The position numbers and the translations under genes were made by a program. The notes beneath the pieces are model-generated. The model saw only the letters and a list, made by a program, of their open reading frames with translations, was not told where the DNA came from and did not search any database. From the NCBI RefSeq assembly GCF_024298765.1, contig NZ_CP101210.1: a stretch of DNA of 64,000 nucleotides; one strand, given 5' to 3'. This DNA comes from Escherichia coli (GTDB taxonomy: Bacteria; Pseudomonadota; Gammaproteobacteria; Enterobacterales; Enterobacteriaceae). The number at the start of each line of letters is the position of its first letter. Position 1 is the stretch's first letter. Positions 5,089 to 36,430 of the stretch are shown one piece after another.

Positions 5089-5868
5089 TTACGCCAGTTG
5101 TACGGACACGAACTCATCAGGGTCAGCCAGCAGCATCAGCGGTGCTGACTGAATCATGGTGAACTCACGCGCCGGATCGCCGGTGGTCACCCAGTTTTTC
5201 GGGTAACGGGCAGAGGCGTTAATGCCTTCGCGCTGTGCGTCCGCATCCTGAATGCAGCCATAGGTGCGCAGACCGCGTGCATGAGTGTTACCCAGCACCA
5301 TCGTGTTGTCCGGCAGGAAGTTCTTTTTGACGCCGTTTTCCACGTACTGTCCGGAATACACGACGATGGCCACATCGCCATACATCCCCTTATAGGACAC
5401 CGCTTTACCCAGGTCTTTCACCGCTGTCTCCAGCTCGGAATGAGAGCCGCGACGGGTATCCAGCTTCTCCTTGACGGCGTTGAAGGAACGGAACAGCGCC
5501 CAGCCTTTCGGATCAAACACGATGATATTCACCACGCCGCTGGCGTTCAGCGCGTAGGCTTCGATATCGTCGGTCGGGTCATACGTGGACTTGTCACGCT
5601 TGCTCCACTCCGTGCCGCCGGACTGCGTGATGTTGTTCGCCGCACTGCGGCCCATATCCACCTCAACCGGATCGAAGGCTTCACCGGTCATGGTGTATTT
5701 GCCCTTGAGCACGGCAGAAACTGCCTGCATCTCTTCGACCTGAGCAATGGCCAGCTCTTCGTCACGCATGTTCTGCAGGATGATGCGACGGCGGCGGTAA
5801 GCCGGGTCCGCCAGATTCTGCGGATCTTCATCCGGCAGGCGACGCAGGGTCATCTGCGGATTCACTTC
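5089..5868 (-). pseudogene. E: major capsid protein E, C-terminal ~258 codons, separated from its 5' part by a ~10.9 kb insertion
   Basis: ORF 5089..5865 begins EVNPQMTLRRLPDE..., i.e. lambda gpE from about residue 91; no start codon of its own. Confidence 0.9.
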
Positions 5869-5869
5869 A

Positions 5870-5879
5870 TGCTTGGGTT
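5870..5879. repeat. left junction direct repeat (att core copy) TGCTTGGGTT
   Basis: Identical 10-mer at 16754..16763; context atgcttgggtta vs gtgcttgggttt. Confidence 0.8.
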
Positions 5880-5955: not shown

Positions 5956-5976
5956 TGCAATACAACGTGCAATACA
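5956..5976. repeat. GCAATACA direct repeats near left end (candidate arm-type integrase sites)
   Basis: tgcaatacaacgtgcaatacatgg; the same motif recurs at the right end. Confidence 0.45.
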
Positions 5977-6013: not shown

Positions 6014-6919
6014 ATGCGCTCACCCAACAGAATGCATGAACGCTCAACATTTTATAAGTATATGTCGTTGAATACCGCGAAGATTGTTCTTGATTCATGC
6101 AGCCTTAGATGGAGTTCTCCGGTCCTATTTAATGACCCTTTTGATGTTCCAAGAGAAGTTATGCCTGGTATTAACGAAATTAATATTGGCAAAGCTTTAG
6201 CCCGCAAGTTAATAGCGGAGTTGATTACCCCCAGAGAAGACATACAAAATTTAAACCCTAGAATTAGAACAATGCTAAGTGATTTCCAAAAGTCATTTCC
6301 TTTAGGCATACCCGCAGGATTAATTGAAAGATTTCAAGAAATGGTAAACATTCCACCAGTTGGGATTGGCGCTCCTGCGGCAATACAAGAAATGAAAGAT
6401 ATCTGGCGAGGAATGCTTAATAACAGAAGGATTTTGTGTTTATCTGAGAGCCCTATAATCACTCCTATGTGGAATCACTATGCCGATAAATATAAAGGTA
6501 TAGTTATCGAATTTGATTGTGTAGACTTTCTGGATAGCGCTTGGTTAATAGCCAAACCTATGAAATACACAGATGAAATGCCTCTAACTCACACTGCTGA
6601 AGGGATGGCCGAGTTGCTTTTCATGCCAGACAATAAGTCAATTGAATATATCAATAATGAGATAATATTCATAAAAACAGAAGAATGGGCATATGAAAGA
6701 GAGTGGAGAATTTCAACCTACGCTAGGCCAAATAGCACTGGTCAATATAGCGACTTAAAATTTCACCCTTTTGAGTTAAAATCTGTAATACTTGGTCCTC
6801 TTTTTGATGCCAGCGAGTTCGATGAAGTCGCATCACTAGTTAAAATGTATCCAAGAGCGAAATTATTTAAAAGTTCATTTGGGAACGACAGAAAAATATC
6901 CATAGTACCACTACCTTAA
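6014..6919 (+). CDS. DUF2971-like hypothetical protein, AT-rich cargo
   Basis: 301 aa; motifs FYKY, LFNDPFD, EWAYEREWR recalled as DUF2971-like; codon usage visibly more AT-rich than neighbours; hairpin terminator follows. Confidence 0.6.
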   Translation: MRSPNRMHERSTFYKYMSLNTAKIVLDSCSLRWSSPVLFNDPFDVPREVMPGINEINIGKALARKLIAELITPREDIQNLNPRIRTMLSDFQKSFPLGIPAGLIERFQEMVNIPPVGIGAPAAIQEMKDIWRGMLNNRRILCLSESPIITPMWNHYADKYKGIVIEFDCVDFLDSAWLIAKPMKYTDEMPLTHTAEGMAELLFMPDNKSIEYINNEIIFIKTEEWAYEREWRISTYARPNSTGQYSDLKFHPFELKSVILGPLFDASEFDEVASLVKMYPRAKLFKSSFGNDRKISIVPLP

Positions 6920-7025
6920 AAGGTCAAATGCTTTTGACAAATAAAATCTATCGCCAGTTTTACTGGCGACTTTTAAGCAACAAAGAACCACCTAAGCACT
7001 CTTCCTACCTATGGTTTCATTTGTT

Positions 7026-7577
7026 TTAACTTCGCTGATTATCCTTGATATACCTTTCAGCCATATCTGGAATGTTATCTGAGATCTGGTAAGCTCGAAT
7101 AAATGCTTTACTGACCTCCATCTTAATGAAGTCCTGATACCGTTTTTCCATGCCAGGAAACTGTCGACAGATCGCAAGTGGAAGACTATCAATGATTGCT
7201 CCAACTTCCCCAGTTAATTTCGACAAGGCATAAGTCGCAAATGCAGTGTCAATTACCTCACCTGTTTCGCTGGCATTCTTCAGTTCCTGTGCGTCGGCCT
7301 GCGCACGCGTAAGTCGATGGCGTTCGTACTCAATAGTCCCTGGCTGGAGATCTGTCTCGCTGGCCTGCCGCAGTTCTTCAACTTCCCGGCGCAGCTTTTC
7401 GTTCTCAATTTCAGCATCCCTTTCGGCATACCATTTTATGACGGCGGCAGAGTCATAAAGCACCTCATTACCCTTGCCACCGCCTCGCAGAACGGGCATT
7501 CCCTGTTCCTGCCAGTTCTGAATGGTACGGATACTCGCACCGAAAATGTCAGCCAGCTGCTTTTTGTTGACTTCCAT
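7026..7577 (-). CDS. terminase small subunit Nu1-like; N-terminal ~100 aa identical to the prophage Nu1, C-terminal half divergent
   Basis: 183 aa; MEVNKKQLADIFGASIRTIQNWQEQG... identical to ORF 22397..22942 over the DNA-binding domain, then about half-identical. Confidence 0.85.
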   Translation of the reverse strand: MEVNKKQLADIFGASIRTIQNWQEQGMPVLRGGGKGNEVLYDSAAVIKWYAERDAEIENEKLRREVEELRQASETDLQPGTIEYERHRLTRAQADAQELKNASETGEVIDTAFATYALSKLTGEVGAIIDSLPLAICRQFPGMEKRYQDFIKMEVSKAFIRAYQISDNIPDMAERYIKDNQRS

Positions 7578-7599
7578 TGTTCATTCCACGGACAAAAAC

Positions 7600-7790
7600 A
7601 GAGAAAGGAAACGACAGAGGCCAAAAAGCTCGCTTTCAGCACCTGTCGTTTCCTTTCTTTTCAGGGGGTATTTTAAATAAAAACATTAAGTTACGACGAA
7701 GAAGAACGGAAACGCCTTAAACCGGAAAATTTTCATAAATAGCGAAAATCCGCGCGCCTGACGCCCCGTAGCCTGTCAGATCGCCGGAAA
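7600..7790 (-). other. cos-like site of the element: cosB conserved, cosN divergent
   Basis: Aligns base for base with prophage cos at ~22960..23150; the 12-nt cohesive-end sequence differs at 5 positions (aggtcgccgccc vs cgcctgacgccc on the + strand). Confidence 0.7.
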
Positions 7791-7822
7791 GGACCCGCCA
7801 GCCAGAGCGGGCCCTAATTTCA

Positions 7823-8206
7823 TCAACCAATCAGCTTATAGCGACCATCCCGTGCATTGCGGCGTACACGCTCAATCTTGAGGCATAGCGCCGCATCTGG
7901 CTTTTTTGGGACAGGTACGCGGCAATATTCAGAAGCGCGAGGAATATTATTTATCCAGTCGATCACTTCACTTAAATACCAGGCCTTACGCCCTTCCGTA
8001 ACCTGCACACGCTCCGGGAACTCTCCACTAGCCTCAAGGTTTAGCAGTGTACGCCGACTCAGGGTTGTAATTTCCATCACCTGATTCATATCAACAAGGC
8101 GCTCGCTTAAACACATTTTGTCAGCGATAGCTTTTAATTCCTCTACAGCTGGATTCGGGTACATCATTTCGGCAATTGGCTTAAGGTCATTGTAATCATT
8201 CTGCAT
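7823..8206 (-). CDS. AlpA-family DNA-binding protein with N-terminal extension
   Basis: 127 aa; C-terminal part (ITTLSRRTLLNLEASGEFPERVQVTEGRKAWYLSEVIDWI) resembles AlpA/excisionase-type wHTH. Confidence 0.6.
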   Translation of the reverse strand: MQNDYNDLKPIAEMMYPNPAVEELKAIADKMCLSERLVDMNQVMEITTLSRRTLLNLEASGEFPERVQVTEGRKAWYLSEVIDWINNIPRASEYCRVPVPKKPDAALCLKIERVRRNARDGRYKLIG

Positions 8207-8217
8207 TGTATCCCCCT

Positions 8218-8559
8218 TTACACACGAGCCAGCGGCTGAACAGAAATACCTGAGCCAACAAACGCTGCAATCTTTACTGACAGTTCTTTTACAGACTCAG
8301 GCCAGTTCAGAGCATCAACATTTAAGACACCTGTCTTATAGACCTGAGCCTGTGTTTTTTTCGCGGTGTCGATTTGTACAGCGGAAACATAAACCGCTTT
8401 ACCTACGCTCGAACCATCCCATACCACCAGTGCACCTGTTGCATCTTCCTGCATCAGTGGCGTAAATGCAGGAATTACCCCTTTATTAGCTGAAAATATC
8501 CCCAGCGTAGTCACCAGTGCTTCAGTGCCAGCCATGAGTTCAGTGTAATGAGTAGCCAT
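8218..8559 (-). CDS. head decoration protein, gpD family
   Basis: 113 aa; ...VVWDGSSVGKAVYVSAV...FVGSGISVQ parallels lambda gpD ...[17 protein letters not shown]...FAGTAISIV. Confidence 0.65.
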   Translation of the reverse strand: MATHYTELMAGTEALVTTLGIFSANKGVIPAFTPLMQEDATGALVVWDGSSVGKAVYVSAVQIDTAKKTQAQVYKTGVLNVDALNWPESVKELSVKIAAFVGSGISVQPLARV

Positions 8560-8568
8560 TGCTCCCCC

Positions 8569-9609
8569 TTAGCCAATGCGAACGGTAACAAAACGATTGA
8601 TGCGGGCCGGTATTGGCTGTGGTGCTGAATGTGTCTGCACATATTCAATAGCCGGATCACCAGGCACAATATAGTTTTTCGGTGCAAGTTCGGCTTTAGT
8701 CAGCCCCATTCGGATTAGCTCCGGATCCTGAATACCGCCATAGGCGACAATCCCCTGAAGAGCCGTATTGCCAAGCACCATCAAATCAGGATCAAGGAAA
8801 TGTTTTTCAGTTCCGTCCTCGTCGGTATAACGCCCGCTGTATACAACAATCGCAACATCGCCCATATACCCTTTAAAACTCACCGAATCACCAAGGTCTT
8901 TAAGGGCCGTTTCCAGTTCGGAATTAGAGCCACGACGGGTATCCAGAGCCTCTTTTATCGCTCTGAATGAACGGTATTTCTTCCATACATTACCGCCCAT
9001 AATGATGATATTAGTGACGCCCTCACTAAATTCTGCGTAGCTCTCAATATCATCATTTGGATCAAAAGTTTCTTTATCCTTACCTGACCACTCAGCACCG
9101 CCAGACTGAGTGATGATATTTTGTGGTTTAATATTCCAGTCCAGCTCATAACGTTCAATACCATCGCCCTCAATGATATTTTTCCCCGTTGTGATTGCCT
9201 GAACGGCAAGCCATTCAATACGTGCACGAATAGATTTAGCCTGATTTACAATCGCCTGTTTAACTTTAATATTACGCGCTCCAAAAGCATTGTATTGCTC
9301 AGGTGATACACCAGCAGGGCGCACAGCTAACTTATTTGGATCAATGCTGCTTTTCGGCTTCATATAGCCTGGACGAATTGTTTTTGATTCGTACCCTTCG
9401 TCACGTGAAACTTTACTACCCACCATAGGAGAACAAAACGCTGCAATTGGGATATTTGGATCGTCGATTGTATCAAGAATAATATCGCGCGATTCAAACA
9501 TTACCGAGCGAGTAAAAAACAAACTGGTAAACAACGCATTTAGTTGTTTTTGTACATCTACAGCATTAACCACCTGTACAAGCTGGGTAGGCGAATATAA
9601 ATCAACCAT
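8569..9609 (-). CDS. major capsid protein, gpE family, divergent paralog of prophage E
   Basis: ORF 8569..9783; likely start MVDLYSPTQL... after AAGAGG RBS; conserved blocks TQSGGAEWSGKDKETFDPNDDIESYA and TRRGSNSELETALKDLG match gpE. Confidence 0.8.
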   Translation of the reverse strand: MVDLYSPTQLVQVVNAVDVQKQLNALFTSLFFTRSVMFESRDIILDTIDDPNIPIAAFCSPMVGSKVSRDEGYESKTIRPGYMKPKSSIDPNKLAVRPAGVSPEQYNAFGARNIKVKQAIVNQAKSIRARIEWLAVQAITTGKNIIEGDGIERYELDWNIKPQNIITQSGGAEWSGKDKETFDPNDDIESYAEFSEGVTNIIIMGGNVWKKYRSFRAIKEALDTRRGSNSELETALKDLGDSVSFKGYMGDVAIVVYSGRYTDEDGTEKHFLDPDLMVLGNTALQGIVAYGGIQDPELIRMGLTKAELAPKNYIVPGDPAIEYVQTHSAPQPIPARINRFVTVRIG

Positions 9610-9826
9610 ACGCATCCTCTTTGCATTCATTAAAAATAATTGTGGATATATGCTATCACCGATATTTGTCATGCGAATACATGCAACCGAGTGCAATGTT
9701 GTATAAAGTTTTGGGATAACAACTTCAGCGCGGATAATTAGTGTTAATATCTTAACTCCCTTTGGTCGGGATTTATGTAGCATGCCGGAAAATTTATTTT
9801 TTTCCGGCCTTTTTTATTGGCAATAT

Positions 9827-10276
9827 TTAAAACGGAATATCATCTCCCCATTGCTCATTATCTCCCACTGGTGGATGGCTTCCTTGCTGATCTGCCTGTT
9901 GTTTTGCTCTGTTCAGTGCGTCAGTAGCCTGACCCTGTTGACCTTTTTTGCCGCCCGGTCGCACCGTTCGCGCACTGATTACGCTGTCTGCGATAACCTG
10001 CCAGCCCTGCCGCGTTTCACCGTTCTGTCCAGTCCACTGGCTCACCTGCATATTACCCGCCACGCTCAGGAGTTCGCCTTTGTGATGCTTTGCCAGCGCG
10101 TCGGCTTGTCTGCCAAACGCCAGGACAGATAACCACATCGTCGCCGTTCCGTCATCTGCCTGGCTGCATGGCAAAGATACCGCCATCCGTGCCAGTGTCA
10201 TGGGTGTTCCCTTGCTGGTATGTTTTACCTGTGGGTCGTCCACCAGCCGCCCGTAAGCTGCTATTTGCGCCGTCAT
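9827..10276 (-). CDS. SSB-like single-stranded DNA-binding protein
   Basis: 149 aa; OB-fold-like N-terminus and C-terminal acidic tail ending DDIPF, the SSB hallmark. Confidence 0.6.
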   Translation of the reverse strand: MTAQIAAYGRLVDDPQVKHTSKGTPMTLARMAVSLPCSQADDGTATMWLSVLAFGRQADALAKHHKGELLSVAGNMQVSQWTGQNGETRQGWQVIADSVISARTVRPGGKKGQQGQATDALNRAKQQADQQGSHPPVGDNEQWGDDIPF

Positions 10277-10569: not shown

Positions 10570-10805
10570 CCACCACCTTGTCTACCTTGTCTACCTGATT
10601 AGTTATCAGGCCAGTAATGGCGCGGGTTTCAGGGAGGTAGACAGCCCCAAATAGCTGTCTACCTCATCTCTACCCGTCTCCTTACCTGTCTACAAAAATG
10701 GGTAGATAAGGTAGATAACAGGTAGACAGTGAAAAATAGTTATCTACCTGCATTAATGCATTGAAATAAAAGTATTTTATTTCAGTCAGGTAGACAAGGT
10801 AGATA
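10570..10805. repeat. iteron array GGTAGAYA (11 or more copies, both orientations): candidate replication origin
   Basis: ttgtctaccttgtctacc, ggtagacag, ctgtctacc, ggtagataaggtagataacaggtagacag, ttatctacc, ggtagacaaggtagataa; immediately downstream of the primase-helicase gene. Confidence 0.75.
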
Positions 10806-10819
10806 ACCATTGCCATTTT

Positions 10820-12571
10820 TTATAAAAACGCATCGCAATCATCAGTAGTCGTTGCGTTGGTCTGCGTGACTCCCTTAACTTTTCGCGTAATATATTCATA
10901 TCCGTAAACTTTCGCCGCTGACCTCATAGCCTTTCCGAACTCATTCACGCTCAAACATTTCCCCTTTCCTGTATATGCCATGAAGGCCATATAGACACGG
11001 TAAAGGCTGTTTCTGGTCGTGTACTTCACGGTGTCACCACCACCGCCCATCATTAGCCCACGAGCTTCCTCCAGAAACTCCAGCGCCGCGCAAAGCTCAA
11101 CAACCGGATCCGTTTGCTGCTTTATTGCCAGAGCTTCATCACCGTCACGCTGTTCCAGTAATAAAGCCCGTGCCTTTTCAGGGTCAGCAAAATTAGCCAG
11201 CAAGCGGCGGATAATTACGGGGATTTCTGCCGCTATCTTTTCCGGTAATTCCTTGTCTTTTTCGTCCTCCCTTACAATGTTGTCGAACCGGAAAATCACC
11301 CGACGGCGTGACACACCTCCGGCCCGTTCGGTAAAGATCATCGGGTCGTTATTGGTTGCCAGTACCACCGCCCTTATTATCGTCGTGAATCGCTTCTCAT
11401 ATTTCGGGTTAATTTCAACGGGATCGCCTCCCGTGATTTTCTTGATGCCCGTGCCTTCCCCCGTATATTTCGGCTGATCGGCAAGGACGATAAGACGACT
11501 CCCGACAACCTGCGCACGCCCTCCTGCATCATCGAGTGATGTCATCTCTGCGCTTACGGTGTTCTGTTTGCCAGCAAGCAGGGTGGCAATATGGGTAAAT
11601 GTACTCTTACCGCTTCCCCCGTCTCCGGTGGCCTCAATGAACATCTGCCAGTCGTACCGGTTCGCCATAATCATGTACAGCGCGGCACATATACGCATCA
11701 TCTTGCGCGGGTCTTTTCCGGCTGCGTGCTCAAGCCATTTATGAAAGTTTGGCGCGTTATCGCGGATGTTCTCCCCTGGTGCTGGTGGCGTGTACTCAAT
11801 GCCGTTGTGCGTGGTGATCCAGTTCTCCGGCGTGTGCGGGGAAAATTCCCCCGTTTTCAGGTCAAGCGCACCATTGGCGAACGGCAGCAAATCGCCGGAC
11901 GGCTCGCCCATTGGTTCGGCAATAACTTTTAACGCTTCAACGGCGTTATTGATCACGCGTTTGCTGAAAGTGGCCCTGTGCTCTGAATAGATCGCCACCA
12001 TTTCGCGGCTCAGCTCCATTGTGCTGATCGGACACCATACCCCGCCGCGCCATACGTGAACGATTTCACTTTCCGGATGCACACAAACGCCATCAAAGCG
12101 CTCGGCAAGCAGCTGCGCGCGCTCACTGTCTGCCATCTGTGAAAGTTGCGCCTTTTGCTTCGTCGGAAGATTAAGCACCAGGCTTTCCCCACGCTCGCAT
12201 TCCTCTTTGAGTCGCGGCAACTGGTCGGATAAATCCACTGGGCTGATGTCAGTAATCCCCGCGTATTCGTGTACGGTCTTCACTCCAGCCACAGCCAGTA
12301 ACGTAACAATCTGCGTCATGCTGTGCTCTGTGATATGTCCTGCGCGGTAAACACGCACACACTGACGATCTTCATCAATGATCCGGTAATCGGTGATGTT
12401 TTTCAGTTGCTCATCAGCCAACACGACAGGCGGCACATCGTCGGCGGCAATATGTTTACCCGCCCATTCCTGCCACTCTTTCGCATGGCTCCACGCATCA
12501 CTACCTGCAAAGATGATTATCTCTGTCAGTCTGTCGCGTGGCTGTTTTTTTAAGTTCGGTGCCAGTTTCAT
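10820..12571 (-). CDS. primase-helicase (P4 alpha / D5-type replication protein)
   Basis: 583 aa; Walker A GDGGSGKST in the C-terminal half; domain layout as in satellite and plasmid primase-helicases. Confidence 0.75.
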   Translation of the reverse strand: MKLAPNLKKQPRDRLTEIIIFAGSDAWSHAKEWQEWAGKHIAADDVPPVVLADEQLKNITDYRIIDEDRQCVRVYRAGHITEHSMTQIVTLLAVAGVKTVHEYAGITDISPVDLSDQLPRLKEECERGESLVLNLPTKQKAQLSQMADSERAQLLAERFDGVCVHPESEIVHVWRGGVWCPISTMELSREMVAIYSEHRATFSKRVINNAVEALKVIAEPMGEPSGDLLPFANGALDLKTGEFSPHTPENWITTHNGIEYTPPAPGENIRDNAPNFHKWLEHAAGKDPRKMMRICAALYMIMANRYDWQMFIEATGDGGSGKSTFTHIATLLAGKQNTVSAEMTSLDDAGGRAQVVGSRLIVLADQPKYTGEGTGIKKITGGDPVEINPKYEKRFTTIIRAVVLATNNDPMIFTERAGGVSRRRVIFRFDNIVREDEKDKELPEKIAAEIPVIIRRLLANFADPEKARALLLEQRDGDEALAIKQQTDPVVELCAALEFLEEARGLMMGGGGDTVKYTTRNSLYRVYMAFMAYTGKGKCLSVNEFGKAMRSAAKVYGYEYITRKVKGVTQTNATTTDDCDAFL

Positions 12572-14519: not shown

Positions 14520-15056
14520 ATGAATCTAAAAAAAATAGCCACAAACACAAAAAACAAGATAACAGAAACATTTAATAAACTTATATTAGAGGCATCTAAA
14601 ACCCCCACACAAGATGAAATTAAAATACTTGAGAGAAGGAGTAAGAAGTTTAATTACTCCTTTTTCTCATACGCAGTCACAGGAGCTATAATAGTTTTTT
14701 GCTCTCAACCATTAATTAAATACGCAAACCCAATACTTATTTTATTGAGTGGTCTGTTACTGTCTATCATCATTATCATTCTCAGAATGATTTATATTTC
14801 ACAAGCGAATGCATCATGGACAACCAAAAAACGCTCACATGTACTAGTTCATTTTCTTTCTGCATGTTTCATAGCATCAACATTGACGTTGCTATATCAG
14901 GCTTACGATAATAACATCACACACAAATTGTACTGTAAAAATATACAACAACTTATTGAAAAAAGGATAAAAACAGAAAAAAACATCAGCATATTCAGTG
15001 GGATGCAATGCACCCCGGTATATGATTACTCTTTATTTGGATTTAATCTCTTATAA
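14520..15056 (+). CDS. hypothetical membrane protein, AT-rich cargo
   Basis: 178 aa; three hydrophobic segments (AVTGAIIVFCSQPLI, ILILLSGLLLSIIIIIL, VLVHFLSACFIASTLTLL); GGGAG RBS; AT-rich. Confidence 0.55.
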   Translation: MNLKKIATNTKNKITETFNKLILEASKTPTQDEIKILERRSKKFNYSFFSYAVTGAIIVFCSQPLIKYANPILILLSGLLLSIIIIILRMIYISQANASWTTKKRSHVLVHFLSACFIASTLTLLYQAYDNNITHKLYCKNIQQLIEKRIKTEKNISIFSGMQCTPVYDYSLFGFNLL

Positions 15057-15125: not shown

Positions 15126-15353
15126 TTAAACTACCCACTCACCTCGAATCCATGCCTGCACTTCTGAAAGACGATATGCAACAGCAGTGGAACCAATCTT
15201 GATCCGCTTAGGAAATTTTCCTTCCTTCTCCAGCTTCCAGCGTGTGCTGTTCGCAAGAGTGGTTAGCTCCCGACATTCTTTCTCACGGATCATTCGGTCA
15301 ATGTTAGGAATGTACTCCAGACCCTTTTTATCAACAATTGCCATTTTTTTCAT
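15126..15353 (-). CDS. alpA: AlpA-family regulator/excisionase-like protein
   Basis: ORF 15126..15362; ...LTTLANSTRWKLEKEGKFPKRIKIGSTAVAYRLSEVQAWI typical of AlpA; directly follows int. Confidence 0.65.
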   Translation of the reverse strand: MKKMAIVDKKGLEYIPNIDRMIREKECRELTTLANSTRWKLEKEGKFPKRIKIGSTAVAYRLSEVQAWIRGEWVV

Positions 15354-15354
15354 G

Positions 15355-16590
15355 TTAACCAACCTTTTGTTTGAGGATTGTCACTTTTGAATCAGCACCT
15401 GCGATGCTATTGAGATATGTAGTCCAGAGTTCCAGAGCATCCAGTTTTTTAGCCATAAACTTACTCCGGTTGTAAACACCTGCCACGCCAGGTAGCGCAT
15501 GGCCTAACAGTTGTTCTACTACATAAAATTCAACACCGAGATCACTTAGATGAGTAGATAGCGTTCTTCTAAGGTCGTGTAGTGACCATTGTTTTTCATG
15601 GCCCAAACGTTTACCGATTTTCCCCCCAATCTTGCTTACGCTTTCTCTAATTCGCAGACTTCCCAGCACATAACCAGTATGTTTTGTCTCTTCGTGAACA
15701 TCCGTTACCCACTGTCGTAGAATTTCAGGTACTGGTCTGACGATTTCAACACCAGTTTTTGAGTGATCTTTTGGTACAGTCCAAACCCAACTTTCGAGAT
15801 CCCATTCGCTCCATTCTGATAATCGGGCTTCACTCATTCGACATCCAAATACTGTACAAAGCACAAACATTTTTCGCGTGTATTCAGACATTAGTTTTAA
15901 ATCAGGCTCGACAAAAATTGCCTTCCAGAGCTGGCCGAGTTCGGCTTCATCCAGAACCCGATCCCGCTTACCTGCAATCTGCCCCACATCACTCATGCGC
16001 AAATCCTTTAAAGCATCACACGTCGCGTACTGGCGTACCCGACAAAAACGAAGAGCTAATTTAGTGTCAGAAAAAACATACGCCGCCATAACTGGTGCAT
16101 TACGTTTAATTCGGTCAAAACAGTCCAGCCATTCATATAGGTGAGTGTCATTTACGGGCAAATGACCGATATAGGGAAAGATATGCTTTCGAAATCTGCC
16201 AAGCGTTACAGCATGAGTTTTACGACGCACCTTACAGTAATTTTCATACCAGTAATTTAGTGCATCCTCCACTGTAACTGGCTTTAAGCGTTCTTCAGCC
16301 TGAATCTTAATCTGGATACGCGGATCACGTTTGTCAGCCAACCAACCACGGCACTCGTCGCGCTTTTCCCTTGCCTGTTTGAGTGACATATCAGGATATT
16401 TACCCAACGTTAGCCAGACCGGAGCAGCCCGGCCACCTGCTAACCTGTAGAAGAAAACAAAGCTCACAGCCCCTTTAGTACTCACACGAATAGAAAGCCC
16501 CTTTCCATCAGCAATGGTGATCTGCTTTTCTCTGGGTTTCCCCAGATATCCTTTAAGCGCTTTGTCGCTCAGTTTGTTCTCGCCAGCCAT
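15355..16590 (-). CDS. int: tyrosine integrase, P4-like
   Basis: ORF 15355..16641; probable start MAGENKLSDKALKG...; C-terminal catalytic region with HDLRRT and GH motifs. Confidence 0.85.
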   Translation of the reverse strand: MAGENKLSDKALKGYLGKPREKQITIADGKGLSIRVSTKGAVSFVFFYRLAGGRAAPVWLTLGKYPDMSLKQAREKRDECRGWLADKRDPRIQIKIQAEERLKPVTVEDALNYWYENYCKVRRKTHAVTLGRFRKHIFPYIGHLPVNDTHLYEWLDCFDRIKRNAPVMAAYVFSDTKLALRFCRVRQYATCDALKDLRMSDVGQIAGKRDRVLDEAELGQLWKAIFVEPDLKLMSEYTRKMFVLCTVFGCRMSEARLSEWSEWDLESWVWTVPKDHSKTGVEIVRPVPEILRQWVTDVHEETKHTGYVLGSLRIRESVSKIGGKIGKRLGHEKQWSLHDLRRTLSTHLSDLGVEFYVVEQLLGHALPGVAGVYNRSKFMAKKLDALELWTTYLNSIAGADSKVTILKQKVG

Positions 16591-16605: not shown

Positions 16606-16640
16606 GCAATACAAGCTGCAATACAGAGATGATTGCAACA
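16606..16640. repeat. GCAATACA repeats near right end (candidate arm-type integrase sites)
   Basis: aagcaatacaagctgcaatacagagatgattgcaacaca between int start and the right junction. Confidence 0.45.
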
Positions 16641-16752: not shown

Positions 16753-16998
16753 GTGCTTGGGTTTGACATATCCCGGCGTAAATTCAGAGGTGGAGCCGCC
16801 ACGGGAACGGATAACCTCACCGGAAACAATCGGCGAAACGTACAGCGCCATGTTTACCAGTCCCGGAATTTGTGAGAGATAGACTTTCTCCGTAGTGAAG
16901 GGATAGCTCTCACGGAAAAAGAGACGCAGAAACAGCGGATCAAACTTAAATTTCTGCTCATTTGCCGCCAGCAGCTGGGCGGTTGTGTACATCGACAT
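16753..16998 (-). pseudogene. E: major capsid protein E, N-terminal ~90 codons; frame runs into the insertion and stops at 16723
   Basis: ORF 16723..17025: MSMYTTAQLLAANEQKFKFDPLF...GYVKPKH then LAWLSEAFV* from element DNA. Confidence 0.9.
16754..16763. repeat. right junction direct repeat (att core copy) TGCTTGGGTT
   Basis: Identical 10-mer at 5870..5879. Confidence 0.8.
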
Positions 16999-18715: not shown

Positions 18716-22396
<3,681 letters not shown>

Positions 22397-22422
<26 letters not shown>

Positions 22423-22942
22423 TCAGCAACCCCGGTATCAGTTCATCCAGCGCGGCTGCTTTGTTCATAGCTTTGATGATATCCCGTTTCAGGAAATCAA
22501 CATGTCGGTTTTCCAGTTCCGGAAAACGCCGCTGCACCGACAGGGGGATCCCGTCGAGAATACTGGCAATTTCACCTGCGATCCGCGACAGCACGAAAGT
22601 ACAGAATGCGGTTTCCACCACTTCAGCTGAGTCTCTGGCATTCTTCAGTTCCTGTGCGTCGGCCTGCGCACGCGTAAGTCGATGGCGTTCGTACTCAATA
22701 GTCCCTGGCTGCAGATCTGTCTCGCTGGCCTGCCGCAGTTCTTCAACTTCCCGGCGCAGCTTTTCGTTCTCAATTTCAGCATCCCTTTCGGCATACCATT
22801 TTATAACGGCGGCAGAGTCATAAAGCACCTCATTACCCTTGCCACCGCCTCGCAGAACGGGCATTCCCTGTTCCTGCCAGTTCTGAATGGTACGGATACT
22901 CGCACCGAAAATGTCAGCCAGCTGCTTTTTGTTGACTTCCAT
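22397..22942 (-). CDS. nu1: terminase small subunit Nu1
   Basis: 181 aa, matches lambda Nu1 as recalled. Confidence 0.95.
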
Positions 22943-22959
22943 TGTTCATTCCACGGCCA

Positions 22960-23150
22960 AAAACAGAGAAAGGAAACGACAAAGGCCCAAAAGTTCGTTT
23001 TCAGCACCTGTCGTTTCCTTTCTTTTCAGGGGTTATTTTAAATAAAAACATTAAGTTACGACGAAGAAGAACGGAAACACCTTAAACCGGAAAATTTTCA
23101 TAAATAGCAAAAACCCGCGAGGTCGCCGCCCCGTAACCTGTCGGATCGCC
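22960..23150 (-). other. prophage cos site (cosB R/IHF elements plus cosN); cohesive-end sequence GGGCGGCGACCT at about 23120..23131
   Basis: aaaacccgcgaggtcgccgccccgtaacctgtcggatcgcc is the reverse complement of lambda cosN with flanks as recalled. Confidence 0.85.
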
Positions 23151-23330
23151 GGAAAGGACCCGTAAAGTGATAATGATTATCATCTACATATCACAACGTG
23201 CGTGGAGGCCATCAAACCACGTCAAATAATCAATTATGACGCAGGTATCGTATTAATTGATCTGCATCAACTTAACGTAAAAACAACTTCAGACAATACA
23301 AATCAGCGACACTGAATACGGGGCAACCTC

Positions 23331-36217: not shown

Positions 36218-36289
36218 GTGCGGCTTTACCGCATACCAATAACGCTTCACTCGAGGCGTTTTTCGTTATGTATAAATAAGGAGCACACC

Positions 36290-36430
36290 ATGCAATATGC
36301 CATTGCAGGGTGGCCTGTTGCTGGCTGCCCTTCCGAATCTTTACTTGAACGAATCACCCGTAAATTACGTGACGGATGGAAACGCCTTATCGACATACTT
36401 AATCAGCCAGGAGTACCCAAAAATGGATAA
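36290..36430 (+). CDS. cIII: CIII (FtsH inhibitor), apparently 8 codons shorter than lambda CIII
   Basis: [46 protein letters not shown] then stop, inside ORF 36218..36430. Confidence 0.8.
   Translation: MQYAIAGWPVAGCPSESLLERITRKLRDGWKRLIDILNQPGVPKNG

Follow-up and report, generated by a model that had tools for sequence, protein, structure and literature searches.

In the standard model of phage-inducible chromosomal islands (PICIs) a capsid gene and a small terminase gene are counted among the core components, and Escherichia coli PICIs with both capsid and decoration genes have been known since 2018, as exemplified by c1499 and c1500 of EcCICFT073 (Fillol-Salom). Deletion of either c1499 or c1500 left island transfer and interference with lambda both unchanged (Fillol-Salom), and an EcCICFT073 derivative in which c1499 was replaced by cat was transferred at up to 1e6 per ml. 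The island depends on the small terminase subunit (TerS) of its helper and packages phage-sized DNA only, with no capsid-size redirection seen. Helper-embedded PICIs (HE-PICIs) were mapped by Tommasini, Mageeney and Williams (2023; PMC10111431), who recorded 201 instances at the site E:Phage_cap_E:80. The identity block for this class is aacccaagca, at about codon 80 of gene E, and the HE-PICI attP contains a doubled TGTATTGC motif lying 81 +/- 2 bp upstream and 132 +/- 2 bp downstream of the centre (PMC10111431). The type element, Eco567.11capE (hereafter 11capE), is an 11-kb PICI that lies within gene E of a lambda-like prophage located at icd; according to its authors it 'bears its own capsid gene', and it was reported without terS, and in strain NRG857c the composite of helper prophage and embedded satellite excises and replicates first, the satellite excising later (PMC10111431). 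The present analysis concerns an element of this kind in a 64,000-nucleotide stretch of E. coli DNA (contig NZ_CP101210.1 of assembly GCF_024298765.1; hereafter the window), in which an earlier note, made from the sequence alone, had singled out positions 7026-9609. It is probable that this region is the late zone of a HE-PICI lodged in gene E, that its proteins are accessory, and that cosB together with nu1 codons 1-102 forms a helper-type cassette.

The helper is a lambda-like prophage integrated next to icd, in which genes A, B, C/Nu3 and D are intact and a repressor and an integrase are also present. Its own major capsid gene E is split at 5869/16764, and between the fragments lies a discrete unit of 10,884 bp bounded by the 10-bp repeat AACCCAAGCA, of which the window contains these two copies only (Table 1). 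The attL flank agrees with the published E:Phage_cap_E:80 attL when compared by eye, and the doubled arm motif was matched twice, against zero matches expected by chance, at spacings that fit the published values. Moreover, joining the flanking E fragments in silico gives an intact gpE of 341 aa. All core genes of the element share the minus strand with the late genes of the helper, as is characteristic of HE-PICIs, and the hallmarks of Gram-negative PICIs are present, namely int, alpA, a primase-replicase with a candidate origin beside it, and a size within the range of about 10-15 kb. The gene order is int-alpA ... primase-SSB ... capsid-decoration-HTH-cos-terS-cargo, where SSB is a single-stranded DNA-binding protein and HTH a helix-turn-helix protein. 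In a copy of the element that is 99.4% identical, the RefSeq genes are those for an integrase, an AlpA-type regulator, an Icd-like protein, DUF4222, the primase, SSB, the capsid, the decoration protein, the HTH protein, the small terminase and a DUF2971 protein. In agreement with the earlier note, neither this annotation nor PHROGs gave a large terminase, portal, protease or tail gene between 5870 and 16763, and apart from the capsid gene and terS, which the definition of a PICI allows, the element contains no other structural or lysis gene. On these features the element is a HE-PICI of site class E:Phage_cap_E:80 and of the '11capE' type. The kind is already published, and the element is a further instance of it; the novelty is the Nu1-bearing mosaic subtype, its helper-matched cassette and the polymorphism of its cohesive ends, which are modest additions.

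Conservation was read from several sets: 84 related loci for the intactness of the capsid and decoration genes, 83 related satellite loci for cos and the gene 3' of it, 5,426 complete E. coli genomes for the survey of alleles, 50,697 phage records searched by tblastn with the C-terminal half of Nu1, and 9 helper-satellite composites for the comparison of cassettes. These data bear on the idea that head-gene homologues near a cos site are the leftover of a second, degraded lambdoid prophage. The junctions place 7000-9800 inside a single unit whose 10-bp repeats are exact and whose att architecture is the published one, as expected if, as the earlier note held, one discrete mobile element is present. 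In addition, the module order recurs in about 80 loci in which the genes are intact, the ratios of non-synonymous to synonymous substitution rates (dN/dS) are far below 1, and the capsid-decoration allele is found in 394 of the 5,426 genomes (about 7%). Together, the junction and conservation analyses refute the leftover explanation, to which we give next to no credence.

Table 1. Features of the element and its helper prophage, with the cassette pair of strain A37. Positions refer to the window unless another contig is named; +, - and. give the strand.
Feature	Position	Strand	Remarks
Helper gene E, C-terminal fragment	5089-5869	-	
attR core AACCCAAGCA	5870-5879	-	Element right end inside helper gene E; equals published block aacccaagca
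Doubled arm motif TGTATTGCnnnnTGTATTGC, first copy	5957-5976	-	82 bp from core centre
Cargo: DUF2971 protein, PADLOC defence candidate PDC-S31	6014-6919	+	1.8e-32; GC 0.376
Nu1-type small terminase paralogue, 183 aa, mosaic	7026-7577	-	Residues 1-102 helper type, 103-183 satellite lineage
cosB	7578-7754	-	R1 7599-7615, R2 7642-7657, I1-like AT tract 7669-7693, R3 7697-7714
cosN, 12-nt cohesive-end sequence GGGCGTCAGGCG	7755-7766	-	
cosQ, GGGTCCT	7790-7796	-	Homology to helper starts here
AlpA/excisionase-family HTH protein, 127 aa	7823-8206	-	phrog_2790 1e-49; homologue PF05930
gpD-family head decoration paralogue, 113 aa	8218-8559	-	Pfam, PHROGs, solved chains, helper gpD comparison
gpE-family major capsid paralogue, 346 aa	8569-9609	-	Pfam, PHROGs, solved gpE, helper gpE comparison
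Single-stranded DNA-binding protein	9827-10276	-	
Direct/inverted repeat cluster, just 3' of primase gene	10635-10807	.	Repeat families D1, D8
P4/D5-family primase-replicase	10820-12571	-	81% identical to EcCICFT073 primase
AlpA-like regulator beside integrase gene	15126-15353	-	
Tyrosine integrase	15355-16590	-	
Doubled arm motif, second copy	16606-16625	-	133 bp from core centre
attL core AACCCAAGCA	16754-16763	-	Element left end inside helper gene E
Helper gene E, N-terminal fragment, codons 1 to ~78	16764-16998	-	
Helper nu1, 181 aa	22397-22942	-	
Helper cos (cosB, cosN, cosQ)	22943-23161	-	cosN 23120-23131 = GGGCGGCGACCT; cosQ 23155-23161
A37 cassette pair	6683-7211 vs 22217-22745 (L112, NZ_CP029327.1)		

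The small terminase paralogue of the element matches Pfam Phage_Nu1 (PF07471; 7e-84, residues 1-162), the PHROGs terminase small subunit (1e-65) and the Nu1 DNA-binding domain 1J9I (1e-39), with residues 1-68 identical at every aligned position. Its product is identical to WP_074514846.1 and, by these matches, can be securely regarded as a true homologue of lambda Nu1. Comparison with helper Nu1 bears out the mosaic structure proposed in the earlier note: residues 1-102 are 100% identical, 304 of the 306 nucleotides that encode them being shared, and residues 103-183 agree at about 29 of 76 aligned positions (38%), where the DNA is 51% identical. BLAST pairs 7240-7797 with 22605-23162 (95% over 558 bp), and near-identity in the strict sense extends from cosQ (7796) as far as codon 102 (about 7270), with a breakpoint near 7269-7272.

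The C-terminal half of this protein found its best match among the phage records in lambda itself, at 40% identity, and shows 29% identity to the corresponding half of TerS from a complete second-type prophage in strain M9 ('second type' denoting a cosB/Nu1 N-terminal cassette other than the lambda type). An origin as the nu1 allele of another phage was rejected on these grounds, nothing in the 50,697 records exceeding 40%. The homologues of this half (P0004, P0064 and P0106) are all in satellites with the same module order, which is capsid, decoration protein, AlpA-like HTH, cos, Nu1 and cargo; within these data, and as judged from such comparisons, the lineage of the C-terminal half is confined to satellites. 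The satellite-type 3' half of nu1 is present in 31 of the 5,426 complete genomes (0.6%), and satellite Nu1 has a dN/dS of 0.044. In lambda-21 hybrid small terminases specificity for cosB lies in the N-terminal half and specificity for the large terminase (TerL) in the C-terminal half, and a crossover in the conserved middle gives working chimeras (PMC9026076). This domain logic, taken with the purifying selection, makes it most likely, though this is a guess, that the C-terminal half of satellite Nu1 would engage, or compete for, helper gpA.

The presence of this gene is variable. The gene 3' of cos differs widely among the 83 related satellite loci, and in the strain 104 element, at the same E site, a 64-aa open reading frame stands in place of nu1. 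One nu1 haplotype carries a premature stop at W22, and repeated decay was considered and rejected as its origin, since a single G65A mutation shared on that one haplotype accounts for it; the stop is therefore weak evidence for dispensability. The features of Rpp-type redirection were also absent, because the gene after cos encodes a full Nu1 homologue and cosB is 95% identical to that of the helper. Similarity to RppA, the packaging protein of EcCICFT073, amounts to 30% identity over 64 aa, a weak resemblance of winged helix-turn-helix domains. The earlier note had also proposed that the element substitutes its own DNA-recognition subunit, a claim that could not be sustained: the helper's own type is found both in the DNA-binding half and in cosB, and so no discrimination by satellite Nu1 is expected, and the gene is missing from the comparison elements at the E site.

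A separate observation concerns sister PICIs (L008, L017 and about 30 other loci), in which a TerS-like protein of 180 aa is encoded 145 nt after cosN. It combines a different winged-helix N-terminus and a PICI-specific cosB with a Nu1-type C-terminal half of the kind present in the satellite Nu1, and is 38% identical to Nu1 overall. It had no match to solved structures at E <= 0.01 and no BLAST match to RppA. Assignment of this gene as an Rpp was rejected, given that neither a match to the RppC complex in the PDB nor one to RppA was obtained and that the protein is a full-length TerS homologue; from its sequence it may represent a distinct class of satellite small terminase.

The cos regions of element and helper are alike in cosB, where 168 of 177 positions are identical, and differ in cosN at 5 of 12 positions (element GGGCGTCAGGCG at 7755-7766, helper GGGCGGCGACCT at 23120-23131). 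The variant cosN is the commoner form among related satellites (about 49 of 83 loci); three rarer versions bring the total to five, and positions 1-5 and 11 are invariant. It was also found in three prophage contigs with lambda-type Nu1 (99.4%) and gpA (98.6-100%), one of which has an intact E gene as well, and the proposal that it is specific to satellites was rejected for this reason. Since these prophages combine the variant cosN with so similar a gpA, the comparison suggests that the same terminase may serve both cosN forms. In all seven lambda-type composites with a captured helper cos (7/7), the helper and satellite ends would be non-complementary. The survey of variant and lambda cosN forms includes loci L023, L054, L003, L006, L091, L097 and L104.

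Across the composites, the cassette of cosB and the Nu1 DNA-binding domain matches that of the resident helper in 8 of 9 cases and for two helper types. Seven composites pair a lambda-type helper with a lambda-type element. The 5' half of nu1 is 95.4-99.3% identical in six of them (the 64-aa open reading frame of strain 104 giving no nu1 measure), and cosB is 90-97% identical in six (the helper cos of WP7-S17 was not captured). In strain A37 helper and element are both of the second type, sharing 529 bp at 97.9% identity and a cosB identical at 175 of 175 positions, and the A37 element has the same breakpoint and the same satellite C-terminal half as the element in the window. The earlier note had proposed recent exchange with the helper. 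The A37 element, in which cos and the N-terminal part of Nu1 form another cassette, once more that of its own helper, bears this out. Because the lambda-type composites and A37 each match their own helper, the resident helper has served as the source of the cassette on at least two occasions, and exchange appears to recur. The A37 helper Nu1 is itself a natural hybrid, in which the N-terminal half is of the second type and the C-terminal half of lambda type, and the TerL gene of that helper is frameshifted.

A more specific reading of these sequences, put forward only tentatively, is that the family stays compatible in packaging by repeatedly copying the cosB and Nu1 DNA-binding cassette of whatever helper it occupies, and that selection retains a satellite TerS C-terminal domain which captures or modulates helper TerL, often with a cosN of its own such that the ends cannot anneal. 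On the same tentative footing, one crossover site would be the conserved cosQ/cosN segment and the other nu1 codons 76-102. Two short contigs (L007 and L089) join phage-side sequence upstream of cos to a mosaic nu1, and L007 runs on through DUF2971 and attR to the 3' part of E. Such contigs could be deletion products of recombination between helper nu1 and element nu1 or an assembly path across the repeat of about 530 bp; L007 looked like a deletion product, but a short-read assembly path explains it equally well.

The capsid paralogue matches Pfam Phage_cap_E (PF03864; 2e-41), the PHROGs major head protein (4e-89) and solved lambda gpE (7VI9; 5.5e-76), and is 42% identical to helper gpE over the full length (E = 3e-84). 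The decoration paralogue matches Pfam HDPD (PF02924; 5e-15), PHROGs head decoration (1e-25) and the solved chains 1TD0 and 1TD3 (6e-16) and lambda gpD (1e-11), and is 38% identical to helper gpD (E = 6e-18). NCBIfam gave no match for the capsid, decoration, Nu1 or HTH proteins. By the matches obtained, the two are secure as true homologues of lambda gpE and gpD, and the identification of all three minus-strand genes in the earlier note is thus confirmed by Pfam, PHROGs and solved-structure matches. Neither gene is disrupted in any of the 84 related loci, with a dN/dS of about 0.03 for the capsid and about 0.09 for the decoration gene; being always intact and under such constraint, they encode working proteins. 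The corresponding EcCICFT073 proteins are 55% (capsid), 54% (decoration) and 81% (primase) identical to those in the window, and the capsid c1499 is that of PDB 3BQW.

The use to which this pair is put can be read in more than one way. The earlier note favoured a satellite that builds its own shell of gpE and gpD paralogues on the helper portal, scaffold and protease, with its own Nu1 recognising the DNA, a half-way form of capsid-forming satellite. The constant pairing of the capsid with a cognate decoration protein, intact in every locus and constrained, speaks for a genuine lattice and not for a minor subunit that acts as a poison; moreover, the integrated element leaves helper gene E interrupted, and the phage-sized DNA of EcCICFT073 is compatible with full-size shells of satellite protein. 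However, in EcCICFT073, the nearest tested relative, deletion of either gene changed nothing and the c1499::cat island still reached 1e6 per ml, so that the own-shell claim is unproven and, in that relative, contradicted. The helper-type DNA-binding half and cosB leave no separate recognition, and elements at the E site do without a Nu1 gene (strain 104; 11capE as reported), the gene after cos varying across the 83 loci. We therefore regard a self-made shell as unlikely.

Tommasini et al. (PMC10111431) proposed instead that the satellite capsid gene serves as a backup copy, replacing the interrupted E of the helper. E is indeed split, and the element does carry an E-family gene. Against this, the same capsid-decoration pair is found in PICIs outside E, EcCICFT073 at its chromosomal site being one, the decoration paralogue is carried although helper D is intact, and excision restores E precisely. 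Since chromosomal-site PICIs carry the pair and the decoration gene is duplicated despite an intact D, a backup is unlikely as a general role, and for the element in the window we hold it to be very doubtful. Our preference, which covers these proteins as part of the probable reading given at the outset, is that the capsid and decoration paralogues are conserved accessories and not a replacement head.

A further possibility is that the paralogues interfere with the helper or defend against competitors, acting as dominant-negative subunits: assembly would be poisoned by the capsid and decoration proteins, satellite Nu1 would pair with helper Nu1 in mixed dimers through the identical N-terminal half, and the helper or competing lambdoid phages would give a lower yield. 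Mixed dimers are plausible, given the identical dimerising DNA-binding domain (residues 1-102, with matches to PDB 6HN7 and 1J9I), and Rpp of related PICIs acts by heterodimerising with helper TerS. The adjoining cargo slot, too, holds defence candidates. On the other hand, interference with lambda by EcCICFT073, in which RppA is the inhibitor, persisted when c1499 or c1500 was deleted, and a Nu1 poison at a shared cosB would hit packaging of the satellite equally. This combination makes interference an improbable main function.

The reading preferred here, of a late zone with accessory head proteins and a helper-type cassette, can be set out as a sequence of events. After SOS induction the composite would excise and replicate, and the satellite would then excise precisely at the 10-bp core, restoring gene E, both steps being known from 11capE (PMC10111431). 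Replication of the satellite may also proceed from its own primase and origin. Helper terminase would be anchored on the shared cosB by Nu1-type DNA-binding domains, whether of helper Nu1, satellite Nu1 or mixed dimers, and concatemers would be cut at the satellite cos by that terminase, with heads formed on the helper portal, scaffold and protease and helper tails added afterwards. Four copies of the element come to 43.5 kb, which fits a lambda-sized head. In this scheme cos would be the part needed for spread, and cosB with the first 102 nu1 codons would act as a specificity cassette kept in the helper type by recombination with the resident helper.

Several observations weigh against this scheme. 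Virions of 11capE or of its helper have never been recovered (PMC10111431), and because no particles were recovered packaging of the 11capE family is unproven. The strong purifying selection on the capsid and decoration genes implies a role that the label 'accessory' does not explain. Binding of gpA by the satellite C-terminal half is a prediction, and with cosN differing at 5 of 12 positions the cutting of the element cos by helper gpA is assumed, with indirect support from the prophages that pair the variant cosN with a gpA 98.6-100% identical. In strain MLI106K3 (L109, L117) the cassette is mismatched, the helper being of the second type and the element of lambda type with the W22 stop in nu1, and this element may be stranded in its helper. 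Finally, A37 is the only second-type example of cross-type matching in the 5,426 complete genomes.

The HTH protein is conserved directly upstream of cos, between the decoration gene and cos, with a dN/dS of about 0.05; in EcCICFT073 this position is taken by an unrelated 137-aa protein. Just 3' of the primase gene, the cluster at 10635-10807 contains the repeats AGGTAGACAG...CTGTCTACCT and GGTAGATAAGGTAGATAAC, and its position fits the rule for PICI origins; from these features it is likely to be the satellite replication origin. Searches of the element gave no C4/isrK-type immunity RNA in Rfam and no tRNA genes. Cargo differs from element to element in the slot that separates the small terminase gene from attR. 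The slot of strain 104 (L002, 4063-5779) holds an NsnA/PD-T4-2-like pair of DUF262 and HEPN proteins, the swap starting at about codon 17 of nu1, that of L006 (6604-7958) FRG and DUF3892, and that of L003 (6594-7790) an uncharacterised 398-aa protein. A predicted 178-aa protein is encoded on the opposite strand in a stretch of low GC (0.36) at 14520-15056, between alpA and a YlcI/YnfO gene; it has no PADLOC match and its RefSeq annotation is hypothetical. Across the whole window Rfam gave a single match, to the lambda cIII thermoregulator element in the helper early region (36277-36335, 88.5 bits).

The capsid and decoration genes of E. coli PICIs are strongly conserved, yet the one system tested revealed no phenotype for them. 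The subtype in the window is a natural experiment in this respect, for it interrupts its helper's capsid gene, carries its own capsid-decoration pair and encodes a small terminase that is half helper and half satellite. It could show how a cos satellite without Rpp gets preferential packaging, and whether variation of the cohesive ends sets compatibility groups among lambdoid phages and their satellites.

Among described systems the closest is 11capE, with which the element shares the insertion point in gene E, the 10-bp core, the doubled arm motif with its spacing and, by eye, attL, all as in the E:Phage_cap_E:80 class. The two also agree in size (about 11 kb), in the order of zones, in the possession of an E-family capsid gene and in a cos-like stretch held in common with the helper. 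Unlike 11capE, for which no terS was reported, the element in the window has a full 183-aa Nu1 paralogue and DUF2971 cargo. Neither the decoration gene nor the difference in cosN nor the mosaic is mentioned in the description of these elements by Tommasini et al. (2023; PMC10111431). EcCICFT073 is similar in the succession of int, alpA, primase, SSB, capsid and decoration genes followed by cos and a winged-HTH packaging gene; however, it occupies a chromosomal site, its cosB is PICI-specific, its cosQ and cosN are close to those of the helper, and its packaging gene encodes RppA (144 aa). The window thus reverses the arrangement of EcCICFT073 and the Rpp PICIs, since its cosB is of the helper type, its cosN differs from the helper's and its packaging gene encodes a true homologue of Nu1.

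Parallels also exist with the pathogenicity islands of Staphylococcus aureus (SaPIs). As with TerS-S of the pac SaPIs, a satellite TerS homologue has to work with the large terminase of the helper, but there the pac site is satellite-specific and Ppi blocks phage TerS, whereas in the window the DNA-binding half and cosB are helper-type. Ccm of SaPIbov5, a cos SaPI, is likewise a satellite homologue of the helper major capsid protein carried with no portal or protease; unlike the capsid protein in the window, it redirects capsid size and has no partner decoration protein, and the E. coli relative showed no redirection. The capsid-forming PICIs (cf-PICIs; Alqurainy et al., 2023) share the PICI backbone and the satellite-encoded capsid protein and TerS, but encode in addition a portal, a protease, head-tail connectors, HNH and TerL, and the element described here falls outside that class. 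Finally, the half-and-half architecture of the small terminase recalls the lambda-21 hybrids, an architecture that the A37 helper Nu1 shares. Unlike those chimeras, which join two phage lineages, the Nu1 in the window draws its C-terminal half from a third lineage, which has 38% identity with the lambda type and 29% with the second type and was seen only in satellites.

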